Source: a bacterium (GTDB taxonomy: Bacteria > Patescibacteriota > Minisyncoccia > Phycocordibacterales > Phycocordibacteraceae). From it: a stretch of DNA of 64,000 nt. Below are positions 2,293 through 42,278 of this stretch, piece after piece; the first letter of the stretch is position 1, and every line of letters starts with the position of its first letter. Where the stretch lies: positions 5,271-69,270 of the forward strand of contig DAICZA010000001.1 in assembly GCA_027311385.1 (NCBI GenBank), given 5' to 3'. Made by a program: the position numbers and the translations under genes. The notes beneath the pieces were generated by a model, which was given only the letters and a program-made list of their open reading frames with translations, had not been told where the DNA came from and did no database searches.

Positions 2293-3546
2293 ATGAACAA
2301 AATCAATACATTCTCAAAGAACATAGCAACTATAGCCGCCTTCTTCGCGCTCAGTCTGGCCGGCCCGAGTGCCGCGTTTGCGGCCACAGCACCTGACCTT
2401 GGGGCGGCTACCGGCTACTCTCTGTATGGCGATGCGGGAGTGACGAATACCGGTGCGGGGACTCATGTTTGGGGGAATGTTGGTGACAACAGTCTCGGTC
2501 ATCCCGGTCTTCTTGGAACACAAGTAGATGGAACGATAGATGCCGGCGTCGGAGTCGCTGGTGCTGCAGGAACAGCGTACGGCGCCCTCGATGCTCAAGG
2601 AGCTACGGGGAATCTCGACTTGGCCGGGACTCACACCGTTACGCCTGGCGTCTATACGGTCGGAGCGACGACATTGAATGGCACGCTCACCCTTGATGGT
2701 GCGGGCGTCTATATCTTCCGGAGCTCGTCCAGTATCTCTACGTCTGGCGCGGGAACGATGAATTTGATTAACGGTGCGACGGCATGCAACGTGTTTTGGC
2801 AGATTCCTACCTCTATGACAATCGGCACGGGTACGCACATGGAAGGAACGATTATCGCGCAAACCGGTCTCATCTCACTCGGAACGGACGCAACATTGGT
2901 TGGTCGAGCATTGGCGCATACTCAAGTGACGCTCGACAGCAACCAAGTCACCGAACCGACATGCGTGACGCCTCCTCCTCCCTCTTCGGGAACAGGCGGC
3001 AGCAGCACCGGCGCTCTCTACTTCCCGCTACTGCCGGCCATCAGCATTCTGAAGGCGCCGAATCCTTCAGTTCTTCCTCTCGGACCCGGACCCGTTACCT
3101 ATACCTACACCGTCACCAATCCGGGCAAGGTCGCACTGAACACCGTGTGGGTCAAAGACAATAAATGTGCTCCCGTGCAATACGTCTCCGGCGATACCAA
3201 TAGCAATGGATTGCTTGATTTGAGTGAGACGTGGACGTACACCTGCACAAAAACAGTTTCTCAGACGGAAACGGATACCGCGACCGCTCACGGGTACGGC
3301 GTCGCTCTGCGTATGGACGTGTACGCTACCGCGAACGCAACAGTCGTGGTATCCGCCCCGACGGTTACCGGAGAAGTGCTCGGCACTTCAACAAGCACGG
3401 TGCCTGTTGTGCCCGCTGTCCCCAGTTTCCCTAACACCGGATTCCCTCCTCAAGACACCACTCCGTGGATTATGCTTGTGCTCTCCGGCGTGCTTCTCGC
3501 GGCGTCAGTCTCGCTGACTATCGCCTTCAAGAAACGCGCGGAATAG
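2293..3546 (+). CDS. secreted DUF3494/ice-binding-like surface protein with C-terminal sortase sorting signal
   Basis: Signal peptide (AAFFALSLAGPSAAFA), CNVFWQIP motif typical of DUF3494, Thr/Gly-rich. C-terminus has FPNTG + hydrophobic stretch + KKRAE (LPXTG-like cell-wall anchor). Start chosen at MNKINTF. Confidence 0.6.
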   Translation: MNKINTFSKNIATIAAFFALSLAGPSAAFAATAPDLGAATGYSLYGDAGVTNTGAGTHVWGNVGDNSLGHPGLLGTQVDGTIDAGVGVAGAAGTAYGALDAQGATGNLDLAGTHTVTPGVYTVGATTLNGTLTLDGAGVYIFRSSSSISTSGAGTMNLINGATACNVFWQIPTSMTIGTGTHMEGTIIAQTGLISLGTDATLVGRALAHTQVTLDSNQVTEPTCVTPPPPSSGTGGSSTGALYFPLLPAISILKAPNPSVLPLGPGPVTYTYTVTNPGKVALNTVWVKDNKCAPVQYVSGDTNSNGLLDLSETWTYTCTKTVSQTETDTATAHGYGVALRMDVYATANATVVVSAPTVTGEVLGTSTSTVPVVPAVPSFPNTGFPPQDTTPWIMLVLSGVLLAASVSLTIAFKKRAE

Positions 3547-21885: not shown

Positions 21886-21888
<3 letters not shown>

Positions 21889-21994
21889 CCCGTTAGAAGT
21901 CTTACTCATAGTCAAAAGTTATTACCGCGAATGTTTGCGTCGAAAGACCCTCGTTAGGTACTTGCCCTGGCCGCGGACTTCTAACGGGACTCAT
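21886..21994 (-). mobile_element. start-codon palindromic element, MITE-like copy 3 (109 bp) abutting proS start
   Basis: Termini ATGAG|TCCCGTTAGAAGTC ... GACTTCTAACGGGA|TGAG with TSD TGAG. Mini-ORF of about 30 codons ends at TAA 13 nt before the proS ATG. Confidence 0.55.
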
Positions 21995-26967: not shown

Positions 26968-27261
26968 ATGAAATCAATCCGCGACATTCTCCCCGAGTTT
27001 GAGAAAAAAGCGGCGGCGGCACCGAAGGGACGGAAGCGCCAGACCGAGCGCGGCGAGCTGATGCGGTTTTTCCTGCGCCACTTGAACTACTCCCGCAAAC
27101 AGGACGGCCTCCCGCCGATGACGATGGCGCACCTCGGCACCGTGCTGGAGCAAATCCCGACACAGGACTTGTACTATCTGAAAAGCGTCTGCAGTCAGGC
27201 GAAAAACTTCGGCAAAAAGTTCTGGTGGGAACTGGATCCGGCCAAGCACCCGCCGCGCTGA
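26968..27261 (+). CDS. hypothetical protein
   Basis: 97-aa basic ORF. Confidence 0.35.
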   Translation: MKSIRDILPEFEKKAAAAPKGRKRQTERGELMRFFLRHLNYSRKQDGLPPMTMAHLGTVLEQIPTQDLYYLKSVCSQAKNFGKKFWWELDPAKHPPR

Positions 27262-27282
27262 TTTTTTGGTATACTCCGCCAC

Positions 27283-27407
27283 ATGAATCCCGTTAGAGAT
27301 AGCGGGCACGGCTCGCAGGGTCGATTACCTGCCGTTATTACCAATGATAACCTCGATAGGTGTTCGCGGCGTACTTTATACGCTCGTACCCTATCTCTAA
27401 CGGGATG
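27283..27407 (+). mobile_element. start-codon palindromic element, MITE-like copy 4 (125 bp) abutting def start
   Basis: 16-bp perfect terminal inverted repeat ATCCCGTTAGAGATAG/CTATCTCTAACGGGAT with TSD TGAA. 41-codon stop-free mini-ORF (MNPVRDSG...RTLSLTG) ends with TGA overlapping the def ATG (ATGA). Confidence 0.65.
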
Positions 27408-27944
27408 AAAGACATCGTACAAGACGGGGCGGAGGTGTTGCGGGATATCGCGAAGCCGGTGCCGGAGGAGCTGTTCGGCTCCGCGGAACTCGCGACGCTT
27501 ATCGCGGATATGACCAAAGCACTTGATAAGGAGCTTGAGGGCGTCGCGCTCGCCGCGCCGCAGGTTGGTGTGTCCTACCGTCTCTTCATCGTGCGGAAAG
27601 ACCGCACCCTGCCTCCCCCGCCGGAAGCTACGGAAGGTGCCGCGCTACCGCCCCCGCCGCCGCCCGAAGTGGAGGTGTACATCAATCCCGAAATCGTAAA
27701 GACCTCCCGCAAACGCGCCCGCGCCGACGAAGGGTGCCTCTCGGTGCGCGGCGTCTACGGCACGACGAATCGGCACGAACGCGTCACCATCCGCGCACGC
27801 CGCCCGGACGGTTCCCGAATTGAACGCGGCGCCGGCGGCTTGATGGCGCAGATATTTGAGCACGAGATAGACCACTTAAACGGCATTCTCTTCATTGACC
27901 ACGCCGAGCACCTCATCCAGATCCACCATGCCGCAACCGCATAA
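27405..27944 (+). CDS. def: peptide deformylase (with Pro-rich insertion)
   Basis: GVALAAPQVG, EGCLSV, HEIDHLNG motifs; insert TLPPPPEATEGAALPPPPPPEV. Confidence 0.9.
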   Translation: MKDIVQDGAEVLRDIAKPVPEELFGSAELATLIADMTKALDKELEGVALAAPQVGVSYRLFIVRKDRTLPPPPEATEGAALPPPPPPEVEVYINPEIVKTSRKRARADEGCLSVRGVYGTTNRHERVTIRARRPDGSRIERGAGGLMAQIFEHEIDHLNGILFIDHAEHLIQIHHAATA

Positions 27945-28752
27945 GTTTGTATTTTTCGGGACACCGAAAGTTGCGAGCGAGACGCTCGCGACGCTTCTCG
28001 CGCGCGAGTTCGTTCCCGCACTCGTGGTGACGTCGCCGGACGCGCCGCAAGGGCGCGGCCTCGCACTGACTCCCTCGCCGGTTCGGGTGCTGGCCGAGGA
28101 GCACACCATCCCCGTTCTCACACCGGAGACCCTTGGTGCCGAGACGATTTCCGCCATCCGCGCGCACGGGTGCGACTACGCCGTCGTCGTCGCGTACGGA
28201 AAAATATTCCCGGAAGAACTCATTTCAGTATTCCCGAAAGGCGTCCTCAACGTGCACTATTCGCTCCTGCCGAAATACCGCGGCGCGACACCGCTTGAAG
28301 CCGCATTGCTCGCGGGCGAGCGCGAAACCGGCGTGACCGTCCAGAAAATGGCGCGGGAACTGGACGCGGGCGACATCGTCGCACAGGAAGCGACGCCTAT
28401 CGCGCCGGACGAGACCGCCCGCGAGCTGCGGCCCCGGCTCATCGCACTCGGCGCACAATTACTTGCCGACACGCTCCCCGCATTTGAGCGGGGTGACCTC
28501 GCCCCGACAGTGCAAGACGCGTCGCGCGCGACGCACTCGCACAAATTAAAAAAAGAAGACGGTCTTCTTGAACTCAGCGCGCCCGCCGAGGAGAACTGGA
28601 ACAAGTACCGCGCCTACGCCGACAGCATCGGCACGTATTTCTTTGAAAACGGGAAGCGGATGAAAATAACGAGTGCGGAATTCGCCCAGGGTGTTTTCCG
28701 CGTCCTGCGCGTCATCCCCGAAGGGAAAAAAGAAACCGCGTACCGCGCCTAG
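27928..28752 (+). CDS. fmt: methionyl-tRNA formyltransferase
   Basis: FVFFGTP..., NVHYSLLPKYRGATP, C-terminal domain; overlaps def by 17 nt. Confidence 0.9.
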   Translation: MPQPHKFVFFGTPKVASETLATLLAREFVPALVVTSPDAPQGRGLALTPSPVRVLAEEHTIPVLTPETLGAETISAIRAHGCDYAVVVAYGKIFPEELISVFPKGVLNVHYSLLPKYRGATPLEAALLAGERETGVTVQKMARELDAGDIVAQEATPIAPDETARELRPRLIALGAQLLADTLPAFERGDLAPTVQDASRATHSHKLKKEDGLLELSAPAEENWNKYRAYADSIGTYFFENGKRMKITSAEFAQGVFRVLRVIPEGKKETAYRA

Positions 28753-29111
28753 CGGTCGCGGCGGAGCATATTCTTAATTGCGGAGCTGCCGCGCTTCCAG
28801 AGCCGGCGCGTGCGCCCGCGCGAGCGCCGTATCTCCGCCTCCAGCTGGCTCCTGACCCGGTCGGCGGCGCTCTCGGGAGTCGGCTTCACCGCCTCGGCAT
28901 GGAATACCGTGTCATTGATGACGAGCCGTGCGACGAGACGGCACGGCTCCGACGAGCGCCCCTCCGGCGGCGCTTCCTCCACTTCTATTTCAAGCAATGC
29001 ATTCTCCTTCTCGTCGCCGAGCAGGCGCAGCGGGGCCGCGAGCTTCTCCTCTACCAATGCTTCCGTCTCAGGCGAGAGGTGATACTTCGTTGCTTTGATA
29101 GTGATGTTCAT
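28749..29111 (-). CDS. hpf: ribosome hibernation promoting factor / RaiA family
   Basis: MNITIKATKYHLSPETEALVEEKL... typical HPF/YfiA fold. Confidence 0.7.
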   Translation of the reverse strand: MNITIKATKYHLSPETEALVEEKLAAPLRLLGDEKENALLEIEVEEAPPEGRSSEPCRLVARLVINDTVFHAEAVKPTPESAADRVRSQLEAEIRRSRGRTRRLWKRGSSAIKNMLRRDR

Positions 29112-29232
29112 CCCGTTAGAGGTAGGAAATCGGAGATTTCCGTACGATTATTGATAATGGTTTTCACCCACTGTCACATAGTTTACCACAAGACCTTAAT
29201 TACCCAAGGTTTTGACCTCTAACGGGATTCAT
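29109..29232 (-). mobile_element. start-codon palindromic element, MITE-like copy 5 (124 bp) abutting hpf start
   Basis: Termini ATGAA|TCCCGTTAGAGGT ... ACCTCTAACGGGA|TGAA with TSD TGAA; mini-ORF interrupted by TAA at codon 11 (degenerate copy). Confidence 0.55.
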
Positions 29233-29242
29233 AGGCAGGAGG

Positions 29243-29461
29243 TCAGCTACTAATGCTTACCATCTTAGCCCGAGAATGATGTCCTGTCAGTATGCGCACT
29301 GCGCCAACCGGCTTCCCGACGCGGAGCGCGACGAGCTCGCGCACGCGGGTGTTCGCGCGGTTCTGCGCTGCCGGCTCGCGGACCGCTATGAGGAGGGTCT
29401 CGCCTTTTTCTTCCACCCTCTCGCGCTTCGCGCCCGGTGTGACGAAGATTTTTATAAACAT
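29243..29461 (-). CDS. DUF167 (YggU) family protein
   Basis: MFIKIFVTPGAKRERV...GKANxxL-like pattern; start at the ATG regenerated by element copy 6. Confidence 0.7.
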   Translation of the reverse strand: MFIKIFVTPGAKRERVEEKGETLLIAVREPAAQNRANTRVRELVALRVGKPVGAVRILTGHHSRAKMVSISS

Positions 29462-29582
29462 CCCGTTAGAGACAGGGTACGGAATCTCCCTGTACGGCCG
29501 TCTTATTCGGCTTCGCACTCGACCTTATGAATATATGCATGGTGTCCATATTACCGTACTCGCTGTCTCTAACGGGAAACAT
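29459..29582 (-). mobile_element. start-codon palindromic element, MITE-like copy 6 (124 bp) between grx stop and DUF167 start
   Basis: Termini ATGTT|TCCCGTTAGAGACAG ... CTGTCTCTAACGGGA|TGTT with TSD TGTT. grx TAA overlaps the mini-ORF ATG (TAATG). 37-codon stop-free mini-ORF ends at TAA 4 nt before the DUF167 ATG. Confidence 0.6.
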
Positions 29583-30953: not shown

Positions 30954-31518
30954 GGTTAAAGTTCAGAACCCGATGGTATACTGCACAGAGTATGCCAAAA
31001 GAAAAAAGAACTTATGCCGATCGTGCCGAGTATTTGCGTAAGGCCGTTTCCGAACGTCGTAAGAAACTTCGTGAAATGGCGCGCGAATACCGGGGCGGGA
31101 AATGTATGATTTGTGGTTACAAACGGTATTCGGGAGCACTTGATTTCCACCATCGAGACCCCACGAAGAAAGACTTTGGTCTTTCTGTGAAGGGACTTAC
31201 GCGATCGTGGGAGAAAATCAAAATAGAGATTGAGAAATGTGCTCTCGTGTGCGCAAACTGTCATCGCGAAATACATGCAGGCATTACGCAGCTTCCTACA
31301 GAAATGTAGACTGAAAACGAGGTGAATTCGGGGAAACCCTAACAGAGGAAATGCTGTGGGCAATCCCGAGCCAAGTCCCGAGAGTAATCAAGGGAAAGGT
31401 GTAGAGACTATCCCGCAAGGGAGTAGACCGAAAGGTCGAAGCGCCTCGCATCCGACATTTACGAAATGTAAAAAGGATGATGATATAGTCCATCCCGCCA
31501 GTAACGGCGGAACAAATG
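30954..31518 (+). ncRNA. group I intron with embedded HNH homing-endonuclease ORF
   Basis: P7-like pairing (AGACTA...TAGTCC) in the 3' core, omega-G, U at 5' splice site; ORF sits in a peripheral loop. Confidence 0.6.
30992..31309 (+). CDS. HNH homing endonuclease (intron-encoded)
   Basis: CMICGY...HHRDP...CANCHREIH: CxxC/HH/CxxCH zinc-finger HNH motif, 105 aa. Confidence 0.8.
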   Translation: MPKEKRTYADRAEYLRKAVSERRKKLREMAREYRGGKCMICGYKRYSGALDFHHRDPTKKDFGLSVKGLTRSWEKIKIEIEKCALVCANCHREIHAGITQLPTEM

Positions 31519-31716
31519 TAACGAGTTGGTCGTAGGTTCGAATCCTACCCGCGGAGCTAGAAACAGTTAGGCCCTAATGCGAAAGCATCGGGGTCTTACT
31601 GTTTCTCTTCGTCGGTAGGATTCGAAGGCCGGAGGCGGACGCGCCGAGGCGGGGTCGCGCAAAATCTCAGCAGAGATTTATGCGCGACCGAGTCCTGCTC
31701 CCGGAGCCGAGTGAGC

Positions 31717-41289: not shown

Positions 41290-41979
41290 CTATTTCCACT
41301 CAATGAGCTTCCCCGCTTTGAGTTCCATAGCATCGGCGCGGCGCACGTAGCGCCAGTTCCCTTTCGGCACGAGGAAATAATGCTTGCGTTCGGCGAGCGC
41401 GTCGGCGACGTTCCAGAGATCCGTCTCGGCGGTGAGCCACGCCGCGCCGATGCGGTCTGCCCCCGACGGGGCGCCGATGCGGTCTGCCCCCGACGGGGCG
41501 CCGATGCGGCGCATATCGAGCGGCTTGGAGTAGCACTCCAGTGTCTTCTCCCGCGTCTCGTTCATAAACCACTCGTGGAAATACGAGAGCGCGAGCTCGC
41601 GCGGCGTCCGGTACACGGGGTCGCGGAAGCGGAGCACGGCGTGATTCGTCTTGCTGATGGCGCCATAGCGCCCGCCGCGCGCATACAGCGCCACGACGTG
41701 GTCCACGTCGCCCTTCCCCATCCGCGACGACAGATTCATGATAATCGGCGGCTCGCCGTGGACCCAGAGCGCGGCGGCGGCAAGCAGAGCGCCCTCAATG
41801 CAGTGCGCCTTCTTCTCGCGCAGGACGCGGCGCGGGGACATATGCGTATCACCGCTCTTCTCCAGATTGAACGGGAGCGTGTCCAGGAAATCCTGAATCT
41901 TCGCCGGCGTAGAGAGCCGCGAGAGCGTCTCATACTCACCGCGATTGAATCCGGATTTGGCGCGAGTGAGATGCTTCAT
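41290..41979 (-). CDS. hypothetical protein (possible Cys/His hydrolase fold) containing a 27-bp tandem repeat
   Basis: Start at the ATG regenerated by element copy 7; KAHCIEGALL...DHVVALY; RIGAPSGAD x2.4. Confidence 0.4.
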   Translation of the reverse strand: MKHLTRAKSGFNRGEYETLSRLSTPAKIQDFLDTLPFNLEKSGDTHMSPRRVLREKKAHCIEGALLAAAALWVHGEPPIIMNLSSRMGKGDVDHVVALYARGGRYGAISKTNHAVLRFRDPVYRTPRELALSYFHEWFMNETREKTLECYSKPLDMRRIGAPSGADRIGAPSGADRIGAAWLTAETDLWNVADALAERKHYFLVPKGNWRYVRRADAMELKAGKLIEWK

Positions 41980-42260
41980 CCCGTTAGAGATAGGAAACGC
42001 TTCAGTCTGTTTTTTAGATATCGTTTCCCCATCCCGGTTTTTAGATACGTCTCCCGAGCCGTTGCGTCGTTTAGATTGCGGCATGCTTCGTAATATACCA
42101 GTTCGTAGGGGCGGTGGCGTTTCGTCCACCCGCGTGGGGCTGTCTGGTGCTGGCTGAAGCGTTTCCGTAAATCATTCGTGACACCGGTGTACCAATAATC
42201 ACTTGTGAGGCTTCTGATGACGTACACATAGCACATGTTGTCATCTCTAACGGGATTCAT
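41976..42260 (-). CDS. GIY-YIG nuclease (UPF0213/YhbQ-like), element-encoded
   Basis: MNPVRDDNMCYVYVIRSLTSDYWYTGVTNDLRKRFSQH...ELVYYEA...; GIY-YIG core with arm-encoded N- and C-terminal extensions (MNPVRDD..., ...FLSLTG). Confidence 0.8.
   Translation of the reverse strand: MNPVRDDNMCYVYVIRSLTSDYWYTGVTNDLRKRFSQHQTAPRGWTKRHRPYELVYYEACRNLNDATARETYLKTGMGKRYLKNRLKRFLSLTG
41977..42260 (-). mobile_element. start-codon palindromic element, full-length copy 7 (284 bp) carrying a GIY-YIG nuclease gene
   Basis: 14-bp perfect terminal inverted repeat ATCCCGTTAGAGAT/ATCTCTAACGGGAT with TSD TGAA. ORF runs from the left ATG to TGA overlapping the host ATG (ATGA). Confidence 0.7.
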
Positions 42261-42278
42261 CCCGAAATGATACCGCAT

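Follow-up and report, generated by a model that had tools for sequence, protein, structure and literature searches.

A GIY-YIG nuclease gene set exactly on the start codon of another gene is probably the autonomous member of a family of tiny mobile elements found across Patescibacteria; these elements carry an Ssn-like GIY-YIG gene, insert at start codons and would move by the mechanism proposed below. The window (the whole 64-kb stretch of DNA that was analysed) holds this full-length element as copy 7, together with six short copies of 80-118 bp that have the same ends and lie at six other start codons. The element borrows the start and stop signals of its host gene and rebuilds the host ATG. 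Literature searches gave no description of this element.

Anatomy of the element

The length of the element is 277 bp = 1 + 92×3, without any non-coding base, and its sequence is identical in GCA_002255405.1. The features are collected in Table 1. On the minus strand the reading frame runs from 42260 to 41976 and is translated as MNPVRDDNMCYVYVIRS…KNRLKRFLSLTG*. The TGA of the nuclease (41978-41976) shares bases with the host ATG (41979-41977), giving ATGA at 41976-41979. An earlier reading made from the DNA letters only (the sequence-only reading) had already proposed a single frame starting on the duplicated host ATG and this overlap at its end, and both are confirmed here. It had also described a 284-bp copy with perfect 14-bp inverted repeats, which needs some correction. 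That length is roughly the element plus both duplications (285 bp) and not the element proper. The arms (41978-41991 and 42243-42256; ATCCCGTTAGAGAT / ATCTCTAACGGGAT) are 100% complementary over 14 nt at a spacing of 251 nt, but only 13 bp are owned by the element and the 14th pair is supplied by the target duplication.

With up to 3 mismatches, the repeat motif occurs 15 times in the window while 3.8 occurrences are expected, and 15 was reached in 0 of 100 shuffles; the matches form 7 convergent pairs. The tetranucleotide TGNN is duplicated at all seven copies, as had been proposed (NN = CG, GA, AG, AA, AA, TT, AA). All seven insertions are at start codons, yet of the 1,721 ATGs just a few per cent are start codons.

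Table 1. Features of the full-length element, its host gene and the short copies in the window
Feature	Position	Strand	Remarks
Host gene, 229 aa	41290..41979	-	No Pfam family; element on its start codon
Nuclease ORF, 94-aa single-domain GIY-YIG nuclease	41976..42260	-	Starts with the outer copy of the host ATG; TGA built from the inner duplication
Full-length element (probably autonomous), 277 bp	41979..42255	-	Coding throughout, from codon 2 third base to codon 94 last base
Host-proximal terminal repeat	41979..41991	.	Encodes …L S L T G (TCT CTA ACG GGA)
Host-distal terminal repeat	42243..42255	.	Encodes (N)PVRD (T CCC GTT AGA GAT)
Inner target duplication TGAA (gene strand)	41975..41978	.	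Part of regenerated host ATGAAG and of nuclease stop TGA
Outer target duplication TGAA	42256..42259	.	With A at 42260, forms the nuclease start codon
Second stem, 3' strand (gene sense), 13 bp	41993..42005	.	Codons 86-90 (LKRFL); 1-2 nt from terminal repeat
Second stem, 5' strand (gene sense)	42154..42166	.	Codons 32-36 (RKRFS)
-10-like box TATCAT (42267-42272) and 6-nt spacer TTCGGG (42261-42266)	42261..42272	-	Native, directly upstream of ATG
Uninterrupted (empty) target sequence			…CACATGAAAGAC…
Short copy 1, 117 bp	12769..12885	-	Start codon of penicillin-binding transpeptidase gene; duplication TGCG
Short copy 2, 80 bp	14124..14203	-	Start of rsmH/mraW; terminal pair C:G
Short copy 3, 102 bp	21888..21989	-	Start of class II aminoacyl-tRNA synthetase gene; duplication TGAG
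Short copy 4, 118 bp	27288..27405	+	Start of peptide deformylase
Short copy 5, 117 bp	29111..29227	-	Start of ribosome hibernation factor gene
Short copy 6, 117 bp	29461..29577	-	Start of YggU-family gene; duplication TGTT

The nuclease and its relatives

The only Pfam domain in the protein is GIY-YIG (PF01541, residues 9-76, E = 5e-16, 59 bits against a cut-off of 22.6), and a separate DNA-binding domain is absent. Y11, Y13, Y24-T25-G26, R32/R34, H38 and E58, which include the GIY/YIG, Arg and Glu residues on which the sequence-only reading had staked its assignment, do not vary among 22 sequences with identities as low as 64%, and by analogy with I-TevI we take them to be catalytic. The AF2 model (pLDDT 79.7; elements E10-17, E23-28, H31-40, E52-60, H63-74 and H76-93) has the three-stranded sheet with flanking helices of the GIY-YIG superfamily. 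Its best fold matches in the PDB are UPF0213 1zg2 (8e-4) and Slx1, UPF0213/YhbQ-type nucleases being the group against which the sequence-only reading had proposed to model the protein; the match to I-TevI (PDB 1ln0) is weak (E ~1). In profile comparison with UPF0213 sequences, BH0048 is the best PDB sequence match (1e-8), followed by EF2693 (2e-4), and the alignment covers the core only. The NCBIfam model of group I intron endonucleases gives 16 bits against a cut-off of 56. The dN/dS of the gene is about 0.09, so the protein is functional and under purifying selection. No recognised transposase (DDE, HUH, Ser, Tyr or DEDD) is found in the element; the nuclease is the sole gene in its 277 bp, which are too short for a second one.

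Then which characterised enzymes come nearest? In the Ssn/NTS system (family cd10448; Chenal et al., Nat Commun 2025; PMC11893778), GIY-YIG nucleases of 94 aa cut single strands and bind to hairpin repeats, a hairpin split into two strands being accepted as well; SsnA cuts about 7 nt upstream of the palindrome. The authors liken repeat-gene-repeat to an insertion sequence, and mobility is only hypothesised. Rickettsia is among the SRM-rich genomes of that paper, which makes no mention of Patescibacteria (PMC11893778). A single-domain GIY-YIG protein about 94 aa long and many genomic inverted-repeat copies are common to both systems, and in both the repeat starts, on one strand, with (T)CCCG after [G/T]TCAT. 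The NTS reads CGTCAT-TCCCGCG…GCGGGAA-TC; the element has the ends T-CCCGTTAGAG…CTCTAACGGG-A and reads TTCAT-CCCGTTAGAG…CTCTAACGGG-A-TTCAT, or, as paired ends with their flanks, TTCAT + CCCGTTAGAGAT…ATCTCTAACGGG + ATTCAT. The published SRM pattern has 0 matches in the window, the likeness being limited to TCAT-(T)CCCG…CGGG(A). GTCAT-hairpin repeats, among them GTCATCCCGAGG…GGGATC, flank distant homologues of the nuclease, namely GIY-YIG proteins of Planktothrix and Spirosoma (hhalign probability 97%, E 1e-11).

There are also clear differences. The Ssn flanks are complete hairpins of 20-50 nt outside the gene, whereas here a single hairpin encloses the gene and its arms are formed by the codons at the two ends of the gene. 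Nothing described for Ssn corresponds to the target duplication, the insertion polymorphism, the targeting of start codons, the borrowing of start and stop or the MITE-like derivatives, and the C-terminal 20 residues differ. These comparisons support hairpin-binding Ssn nucleases and UPF0213/Slx1-type domains as the probable nearest characterised relatives. The earlier label of a homing-endonuclease-like enzyme needs correction here, the nearest relatives not being of the I-TevI type. The element itself would be a gene within its own split hairpin, which appears to behave as a transposon.

Host gene and empty sites

The host protein was found in 3 assemblies, and the element is present in all of them. 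Metagenomic orthologues of the host gene are mostly empty. Such was the score of 69 of 71 loci, although in some the match starts only at residue 4-11, and about 55 have an uninterrupted ATG start. Empty orthologous sites show a single ATGAAG. One orthologue (L136) is occupied by a short copy, which is related to short copy 5.

Upstream of the empty sites there is a -10-like box followed by a 6-7 nt spacer, often with GGG at its end. Element-free orthologues keep the box-spacer layout of the window, e.g. ggtatccttatgggATGAAG in L098, and from its layout TATCAT with the spacer is a putative leaderless-type promoter. The string TTTCGGGATGA just outside the left end had been read as a possible scar of an earlier insertion at the same start codon. 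It is present at 42256-42266, but its TTTCGGG is the native spacer, which element-free orthologues also have, and a scar is ruled out. A more convincing solitary half-site, CCCGTTAG, lies at 12893-12900, adjoining copy 1.

Family, target and insertion polymorphism

The family seems to be widespread in Patescibacteria, judging from 3,802 protein homologues, mostly of 94-95 aa. Their near-invariant ends MNPVRD…RFLSLTG bear out the suggestion that the repeat arms encode the protein termini. At 80 of 80 genome loci the nuclease gene lies inside the same repeats and is coextensive with them; a free-standing gene without repeats, which the sequence-only reading had named as evidence against its view, was seen at 0 of the 80. 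These loci yielded 83 elements, all of the same architecture, and the terminal pair is complementary in every one (T:A 73, C:G 9, G:C 1). Of the 83, 60 have an exact TGNN duplication and 67 are followed by TGAA, and in most a long host ORF comes next. The other 23 are without matching duplications, and some of them, such as L085, look recombinant, with chimeric flanks.

The target logo is ATGAA with zero information beyond. Residue 2 varies among N, I and S, which is expected since the first two bases of its codon would come from the target. A -10-like box at leaderless spacing is found at 33% of targets and at 20% of control ORF starts, a modest enrichment over a crude control; leaderless targeting is not claimed as a rule, the logo being only ATGAA. 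No relative was found among IMG/VR viral contigs, and plasmids gave only three distant homologues, with GTCAT-hairpin flanks.

Insertion is polymorphic. In syntenic Kaiserbacteria loci the same start codons are empty, occupied by a short copy or occupied by a full-length element. For example, at the start codon that carries short copy 4 in the window, L007, L008 and L009 have a full-length element and L001, L002 and L003 have no insertion, and the site of short copy 3 is empty in the L003 orthologue. One genome has at least four nuclease-bearing copies within two 12-kb loci (L004, L007), and tandem re-insertion at the regenerated ATG is seen in L057 and L060. Many unrelated host genes have been invaded.

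Might the system have been domesticated? Here Ssn-type hairpins and nuclease would serve the host, by restricting or steering incoming single-stranded DNA in transformation or by tuning expression, and recombination would account for most of the spread of copies. In Neisseria, natural transformation is modulated by SsnA/NTS, a system for which domestication has been suggested by its authors (PMC11893778). Strong purifying selection on the nuclease, housekeeping genes that carry copies without being destroyed, and the chimeric flanks of some elements would all fit. On the other hand, both occupancy and copy type vary at orthologous start codons with host-specific TGNN duplications, the element is absent from most orthologues of its host gene, and the multicopy genome and the tandem re-insertions have to be explained. 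Variable occupancy, multiple copies and re-insertion are hallmarks of a selfish mobile element, and we consider domestication unlikely as the main explanation, while a secondary benefit to the host may exist.

Short copies

Short copies have the ends, target, polarity and subterminal stem of the full-length element. Thirteen of them have the subterminal hairpin on the side of the host gene, and two have it on the far side. Intermediates also exist: L057 has a copy (3043-3161) which still contains the first 90 nt of the nuclease gene. With a DNA profile of the full-length element (nhmmer), most short copies are matched at the ends only, and the first 90 nt are kept only in L057_3043 and L048_4559. 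A 'VITND' remnant in copy 4 was considered and dropped, as it is not significant alone. Rfam gave no family match for any copy. Gene remnants and the internal stem are retained, and hence the full-length form is ancestral to the short copies. The same short lineages are at different genes in different genomes. They are, so far as comparison of copies can tell, deletion derivatives that move on their own, which agrees with the proposal that copy 7 is the autonomous member and the short copies are MITE-like.

The occupied genes of the window include def, an aminoacyl-tRNA synthetase gene, a PBP gene and rsmH, so host expression must survive insertion. Short copy 2 has a C:G terminal pair and therefore an inner start GTG; it is in frame with rsmH/mraW and may add a 28-aa extension. 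More generally, the upstream frame is open to the right-end stop or to fusion in 15 of 24 short copies, compared with 5.1 expected.

Constraint on the ends as nucleic acid

The codons of both repeats are frozen. In the host-proximal repeat these are TCT (42/42), CTA (45/45) and ACG (45/45), and in the host-distal repeat CCC (45/45), GTT (44/45) and AGA (43/44), while invariant residues elsewhere in the protein use all their codons. Among 149 end pairs, each of the repeat positions 0-12 is paired in at least 97%. At positions 10-12 there are compensatory changes, even with paired amino-acid changes (PVRA…LALTG, PVRG…LPLTG), and in the second stem synonymous or wobble positions about 160 nt apart covary (45 unique full-length copies). 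Because synonymous codons are frozen and both stems show compensatory changes, the ends are constrained as nucleic acid and not only as protein.

Is this nucleic acid RNA or DNA? Hairpins of the Correia/NEMIS type and rRNA intervening sequences are processed by RNase III. In the same manner, the pairing of the ends might be selected mainly as an mRNA stem, which would be processed (e.g. by RNase III) or would bring initiation signals to the inner AUG, mobility being a separate matter. Every copy folds, on either strand, into a terminal stem of at least 13 bp, and about a third of the targets look leaderless, so that the inner AUG would need rescue. GIY-YIG ORFs are known in non-intron insertions of CPR rRNA genes (PMC11270868). 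The mismatches of the first stem favour G:U on the sense strand, with G:T versus A:C counted 14 vs 1, but those of the second stem lean the opposite way, 12 vs 30. Since the two trends are opposite (26 vs 31 overall), a strand assignment from the second stem alone was dropped. Furthermore, open upstream frames are in excess, which suggests that ribosomes traverse the element, and their passage would melt the stem; a process specific to a DNA strand is indicated by the single orientation of insertion and by the likeness of TTCAT-stem to Ssn sites; and the perfect conservation of CCCGTTAGA itself is left unaccounted for. Selection at the RNA level is therefore a very unlikely main cause.

The same data bear on another scenario, in which the nuclease is a passenger: a MITE is moved by an unlinked transposase, and one copy was invaded by a homing-endonuclease-like GIY-YIG gene. 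Short copies exceed the full-length one 6 to 1 in the window, and transposition catalysis is not known for GIY-YIG enzymes. Yet a late invader would hardly be exactly coextensive with the repeats at 80 of 80 loci, with its conserved termini encoded by them and both stems covarying within its coding sequence. Short copies would not be expected to keep remnants of its gene and its internal stem either, and no consistently linked transposase was seen among the loci examined. We regard a passenger nuclease as very improbable indeed.

Comparison with other mobile elements

IS200/IS605 elements use HUH tyrosine transposases with covalent intermediates; their ends are not mutually paired repeats, and no target is duplicated. 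They and REP/RAYT resemble the present element in small size, ends of folded single-stranded DNA (as proposed here), strand and orientation specificity, a short fixed target adjoining the end, and many short hairpin copies. The element differs in having a GIY-YIG nuclease, two ends that pair together and a 4-bp duplication.

Classical insertion sequences and bacterial MITEs (Correia/NEMIS; IS630/Tc1 with fixed TA target) have inverted repeats and a duplication of fixed length. Terminal inverted repeats, a fixed short duplication, autonomous and miniature copies and possible hairpin effects on mRNA are common features, but the present element has no known transposase, no non-coding DNA and no expression signals of its own, and its target is a start codon. 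To our knowledge, 277 bp is several times below any known autonomous insertion sequence.

Homing endonucleases such as I-TevI and Seg bear an additional DNA-binding domain, and homologous repair copies their genes into a single cognate allele. They share with the element the GIY-YIG fold and the habit of a selfish gene that limits harm to the invaded gene, but they are without inverted repeats or duplication, whereas the present enzyme has only the one domain and the element has entered many unrelated genes. Rickettsia palindromic elements insert in frame inside coding regions, and we know of no autonomous partner for them. They are likewise short, palindromic and compatible with translation, and their insertion in or at genes is tolerated; the differences here are insertion at the start codon and an identified partner gene.

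A proposed mechanism

How could such an element move? We propose that it integrates at 5'-A|TGAA-3' in one orientation, with TGNN duplicated. The nuclease frame would thereby be placed straight behind the host ATG and take over the host promoter and initiation signals, often leaderless, while the stop TGA would be assembled from the duplicated target. The host ATG would be remade from the last element base and TG, with the genes overlapping as ATGA, and the host gene would be translated by termination-reinitiation, a translational coupling which might restore host expression. In the other two frames, translation from upstream would stop at a TAA in the right end, 4 nt before the ATG, or continue into the host protein. 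Because the other frames end in one of these two ways, copies of 80-120 bp with internal deletions should be harmless, and they would be mobilised in trans.

Both ends and the second 13-bp stem would have to pair, most likely as folded single-stranded DNA. After TTCAT on the antisense strand, the paired ends would imitate the GTCAT-hairpin sites which Ssn nucleases bind and cut beside. The nuclease would then cut the folded single strand and so drive excision and integration, and rejoining would be done by host repair functions. We infer host rejoining along with nuclease-driven mobility.

Several points count against this mechanism. GIY-YIG enzymes are hydrolytic nucleases and are not known to transfer strands. 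To leave a 4-bp duplication, a duplex would have to be cut in a staggered way, which is not known for the single-strand-only Ssn enzymes. The failure of the SRM pattern to match, the 23 elements without matching duplications and the modest leaderless enrichment also weigh against it. A cut like that of SsnA, about 7 nt upstream of the palindrome, would fall outside the duplication here. The restriction to start codons could stem from selection alone rather than from targeting.

Significance

The element points to a previously undescribed lifestyle for selfish DNA in compact genomes, an extreme adaptation to a tiny gene-dense genome. It is all coding, starts on the host ATG, takes its stop from the target and restores the host start, which is why even essential genes (def, tRNA synthetase, PBP) tolerate it. 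If the main reading is true, mobility would be a biological role for the recently discovered Ssn-type nucleases and would give an origin for genome-wide hairpin repeats, and one more nuclease superfamily would join the few enzymes that drive prokaryotic transposition. A stronger version is conceivable, though we hold it only tentatively: that this is the first GIY-YIG-driven class of prokaryotic DNA transposons and, at 277 bp and lacking a start or stop codon of its own, the smallest autonomous mobile element known, a start-codon parasite that repays its host via translational coupling, and that the Ssn/NTS-type hairpin repeats dispersed in many bacterial genomes are products or relics of elements of this kind. 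The enzyme-site pair is a candidate for a programmable single-strand DNA tool, like other Ssn pairs.

For annotation, the family accounts for thousands of calls of 86-95 aa named 'excinuclease ABC subunit C' or GIY-YIG in Patescibacteria, and for mis-called starts. An exact-sequence look-up of the 94-aa protein gave no match because gene callers chose an internal ATG and called 86 aa. Many homologues are without the internal Met, and thus the outer ATG is the real start.

Structure of the element and its copies in the window

Read along the minus strand, the nuclease-bearing copy (copy 7) and its surroundings are …GGTATCATTTCGGG ATGAA T CCCGTTAGAGAT … ATCTCTAACGGG A TGAAG CAT CTC…. The sequence-only reading had claimed a perfect terminal inverted repeat, coding capacity at each base and a nuclease stop codon overlapping the host start, and all three are borne out: the arms pair without mismatch, the element is in frame throughout once the TGAA duplications are removed, and the nuclease TGA shares bases, as ATGA, with the ATG of the downstream 229-aa gene (Table). 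Residues 9-76 of the ORF match Pfam GIY-YIG (E = 5e-16). The host protein itself contains a tandem peptide repeat, RIGAPSGAD RIGAPSGAD RIGAAW.

Is copy 7 a single case? At three mismatches or fewer the repeat motif occurs 15 times in the window against 3.8 expected, a number reached in 0 of 100 shuffles, and the matches pair up convergently as seven pairs. All seven read, in the orientation of the adjacent gene, ATGNN-[T/C]-CCCGTTAGA…TCTAACGGG-[A/G]-TGNN, with NN being CG, GA, AG, AA, AA, TT and AA; within each copy the two sides agree. All six short copies (80-118 bp) lie on start codons. Given 1,721 ATGs on the two strands of the window, 7/7 insertions at gene starts are not chance. A solitary half-site, 7 nt from short copy 1, has its TTA as the TAA stop of an upstream 93-aa membrane-protein ORF; it is probably the leftover of an earlier tandem insertion, now providing a stop codon.

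Features of the element, its copies and their sites (window positions unless stated)
Feature	Position	Strand	Description
Inverted-repeat arms of copy 7	41978-41991 and 42243-42256		14 nt, perfect
ORF of copy 7	42260→41976	minus	94 aa, MNPVRDDNMCYVYVIRS…NRLKRFLSLTG*
Element proper, without duplicated TGAA on either side	41979-42255	minus	277 bp = 1 + 92 codons
Stem 2, 13 bp	42154-42166 with 41993-42005		codons 32-36 (RKRFS) : codons 86-90 (LKRFL)
Peptide repeat in copy 7 host protein	about 41400-41480	minus	
Short-copy host			start codon of PBP transpeptidase gene
Short-copy host			start codon of rsmH
Short-copy host			start codon of class II aminoacyl-tRNA synthetase gene
Short-copy host			start codon of peptide deformylase gene
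Short-copy host			start codon of ribosome hibernation factor gene
Short-copy host			start codon of YggU-family gene
Half-site	12893-12900		CCCGTTAG
Membrane-protein ORF	12897-13178	minus	93 aa
Peptide deformylase start			full-length: L007, L008, L009; short: window; empty: L001, L002, L003 (e.g. gctatagtcgcagtATGAAGAAA)
Neighbouring 94-aa gene start			full-length: L001, L002, L003, L007; empty: window, L008, L009
Group I intron	31222-31511	plus	Rfam RF00028, 79 bits; flanks 30992-31309 and about 31530-31565

Homologues and target site in other genomes

A protein search found 3,802 homologues. Almost all come from Patescibacteria, and almost all are 94-95 aa long, or 85-86 aa where the gene caller chose an internal Met. 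In many homologues this Met of the window protein is replaced by F, V, S or Y, which places the true start at the outer ATG. The termini MNPVRD and RFLSLTG are kept down to 62% identity, and residue 2 varies among N, I and S (AAT, ATT, AGT), as expected if the first two bases of its codon belong to the host target and the third to the element. A scan of species-representative genomes gave at least 548 coding copies, and in all 80 of the best loci, which were fetched, the gene is enclosed by CCCGTTAGAG…CTCTAACGGG. In every one of 83 elements the outermost bases pair (T:A 73, C:G 9, G:C 1), TGAA directly follows the element in 67, and the 4-bp duplication is exact in 60, the other 23 having no matching duplications; in most, an ORF of more than 90 aa begins at the regenerated ATG/GTG. 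The reconstructed target logo is A-T-G-A-A with zero information in the flanks. Note that with a C:G terminal pair (locus L065 and window copy 2) the inner start becomes GTG while the outer start is still ATG. Thus the terminal pair is owned by the element and the duplication is 4 bp (TGNN), as had been proposed from the window.

The protein has invariant Y11, Y13, Y24-T25-G26, R32, R34, H38 and E58, and dN/dS is about 0.09 over 91 pairs. An AF2 model (pLDDT 79.7) gives a GIY-YIG fold with a long C-terminal helix, residues 1-9 being of low confidence. The best solved relative is UPF0213 BH0048 (profile 1e-8; Foldseek 8e-4), followed by Slx1; I-TevI and UvrC match much more weakly. No relatives were found in IMG/VR viral contigs.

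Empty sites and insertion polymorphism

Is there any trace of movement? To look for empty orthologous sites, the host proteins at occupied sites served as queries against all of the fetched DNA. The window region 26968-29578 is syntenic with six Kaiserbacteria loci (L001-L003, L007-L009), and occupancy varies by gene (Table). This five-gene block is a hot spot, with three short copies in the window and an empty/short/full pattern that differs in each of the six related genomes; the same start codons were apparently struck by independent insertions. In L003 the start of the synthetase gene that hosts window copy 3 is empty (…gcgtatactttccttATGAGGCAA). For copy 7, scanning metagenomes with its host protein gave 80 loci, of which 71 were examined. 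The site was scored 'empty' in 69, about 55 of them matching from residue 1 with an uninterrupted ATG start (e.g. L098, …gtgcggtatccttatgggATGAAGTGTCTC); L136 carries a short copy of the lineage of window copy 5, and one orthologue has a right-end-like stretch only. The identical host protein occurs in three NCBI assemblies, one of them identical to the window, with the element in 3/3. Another of these assemblies, L085 (GCA_002255415.1, 779-1053), shares the host gene, and its element is nearly identical to that of the window (5 mismatches). Upstream it has a different gene, encoding a cation efflux protein, and its two duplications disagree, with TGAG outside and TGAA inside. The sequence suggests a recombinant or rearrangement between two element copies, and such recombination may account for part of the 23/83 elements without matching duplications.

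The empty sites also bear on TTTCGGG before the outer ATG, which the sequence-only reading had put forward as a possible scar of an earlier insertion. This is ruled out, as the orthologues show it to be native spacer. Host-gene orthologues have a -10-like box (TATCAT/TATCCT/TATTCT), then the spacer, then ATG, and the copy 7 host gene looks leaderless. Across the fetched genome loci (L001-L080), the metagenome loci (L086-L165) and the window, Shine-Dalgarno-like motifs are rare before ORF starts (about 9%), and a TAnnnT box stands 5-8 nt ahead of the ATG in many genes, often right after the preceding gene's terminator. This suggests that leaderless transcripts are widespread in these genomes.

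Constraint on the ends and the short copies

Codon usage was compared over 45 unique 94-aa copies. Within the repeats it is frozen at both the N terminus (Pro3 CCC 45/45, Val4 GTT 44/45, Arg5 AGA 43/44) and the C terminus (Ser91 TCT 42/42, Leu92 CTA 45/45, Thr93 ACG 45/45). T25, G26, L54, R69, R80, R85 and L86 are as invariant, yet use all synonymous codons. Repeat positions 10-12 show compensatory variants (GAT/ATC, GAC/GTC, GCC/GGC, GGC/GCC, GAA/TTC), by which both protein ends are sometimes altered together (…PVRA/…LALTG, …PVRG/…LPLTG). Stem 2 occurs in every full-length copy, and its wobble positions, about 160 nt apart, covary: K33.3:R88.3 A:T 25 / G:C 18, R34.3:K87.3 C:G 35 / T:A 8, and F35.3:L86.3 C:G 24 / T:A 10. 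The ends are therefore constrained as nucleic acid. A long panhandle is predicted for all copies on either strand, and mismatch types in the stems do not distinguish the functional strand. That the pairing of the ends is selected mainly in RNA is less well supported than the mechanism proposed below.

A full-length DNA profile matches the short copies at their ends and not in their interiors, except in L057_3043 and L048_4559, where the first 90 nt (MFYTYLLQS…WYTGF…) are retained and followed directly by stem 2 and the right end. Most short copies retain stem 2 as a local hairpin of variable sequence adjoining the host-proximal end (13 proximal vs 2 weak distal), so their polarity is that of the gene-bearing form. 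The genes occupied by related short lineages differ from genome to genome (window copy 4 / L007_8398; window copy 5 / L136), which implies movement as short elements. That the nuclease is a passenger in a MITE moved by another enzyme is less well supported than an active role for it. At L057 2763-3161 and L060 2136-2534 a full and a short element stand in tandem at one start codon, the short copy sitting in the regenerated ATGA(A/T) immediately after the full-length one; the regenerated ATGAA can thus be struck again.

Then how does the host gene survive? The right end reads TCT CTA ACG GGA TGA in frame 1, with the stop overlapping ATG; CTC TAA cggg ATG in frame 2, with the stop 4 nt before ATG; and ATC TCT AAC GGG ATG in frame 3, a read-through fusion with the host protein. 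It is safe in each of them. In 15/24 independent short copies, vs 5.1 in shuffled interiors (P < 1e-5), the frame that starts at the outer ATG runs uninterrupted to one of these three ends, an excess that argues for selection for translation through the element and then reinitiation.

Comparison with Ssn and possible mechanism

Ssn are 94-aa single-domain GIY-YIG proteins (cd10448; Chenal et al. 2025, PMC11893778) that bind NTS/SRM hairpin repeats, CGTCAT-TCCCGCG-MAV-GCGGGAA-TCYRG. These repeats flank the ssn gene on both sides and are also scattered through the genome in hundreds of copies. Ssn proteins cleave single-stranded DNA only, and just one strand of it, at a point a few nucleotides upstream of the hairpin, and still cleave a hairpin built from two strands (PMC11893778). 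The authors remarked on the insertion-sequence look of repeat-gene-repeat and suggested domestication; their paper shows no duplication, insertion polymorphism or Patescibacteria data for Ssn. A domesticated host system is less well supported for the present element than a mobile one.

The antisense strand of the element, TTCAT-CCCGTTAGAG…CTCTAACGGG-A-TTCAT, shares with NTS the frame TCAT-(T)CCCG…CGGG(A). Plasmids of Planktothrix and Spirosoma encode distant homologues of the window protein (hhalign probability 97%, E about 1e-11), and their genes have TGTCATTCTGAG… and GTCATCCCGAGGAACGAGGGATC repeats on the flanks. Because the published SRM pattern has zero matches in the window, the element is best described as working, by analogy, like an Ssn-hairpin pair, and not as a proven family member. 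Unlike Ssn/NTS and classical IS/MITE pairs, it is wholly coding, its gene lies within what would be its own recognition hairpin, and it acts as a parasite of start codons that bears clear signs of transposition. On its sequence, such a wholly coding start-codon element with the gene inside the hairpin appears to be new relative to both; no description of it was found in the literature searched. GIY-YIG ORFs are known from non-intron insertions in CPR rRNA genes (PMC11270868).

How might it move? A single strand of the element would fold, its ends paired and stem 2 stacked on them; the encoded nuclease would recognise this structure with the TTCAT flank and cut beside it. The element would enter A|TGAA sites, by copying or by moving, always in the same orientation and duplicating 4 bp, and host enzymes would finish the joining. 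Only at start codons would an insertion allow nuclease expression without harm to the host gene, so the distribution would be explained with or without an enzyme preference for gene starts. The mechanism has weak points: no GIY-YIG enzyme is known to carry out strand transfer, the 4-bp duplication implies a staggered duplex cut, and by analogy the SsnA cut position and the element boundary would not coincide.

On L081 and L082 (the Planktothrix and Spirosoma plasmids), the small GIY-YIG genes have defence or glycoside-hydrolase genes as neighbours. Repeated GTCAT-hairpin units flank them, and in one Spirosoma case two units form a large palindrome. The opposite strand of each unit ends in ATGAC, which raises the question whether SRM/NTS repeats of other phyla also came from start-codon-type targets.

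Elsewhere in the window lies a group I intron (Table). ARAGORN found no tRNA around it after trial splicing; downstream there is sequence resembling a tRNA 3' half (GGTCGTAGGTTCGAATCCTACCCGCGGAGC), and an ORF with a CxxC…HH motif precedes and overlaps the intron.
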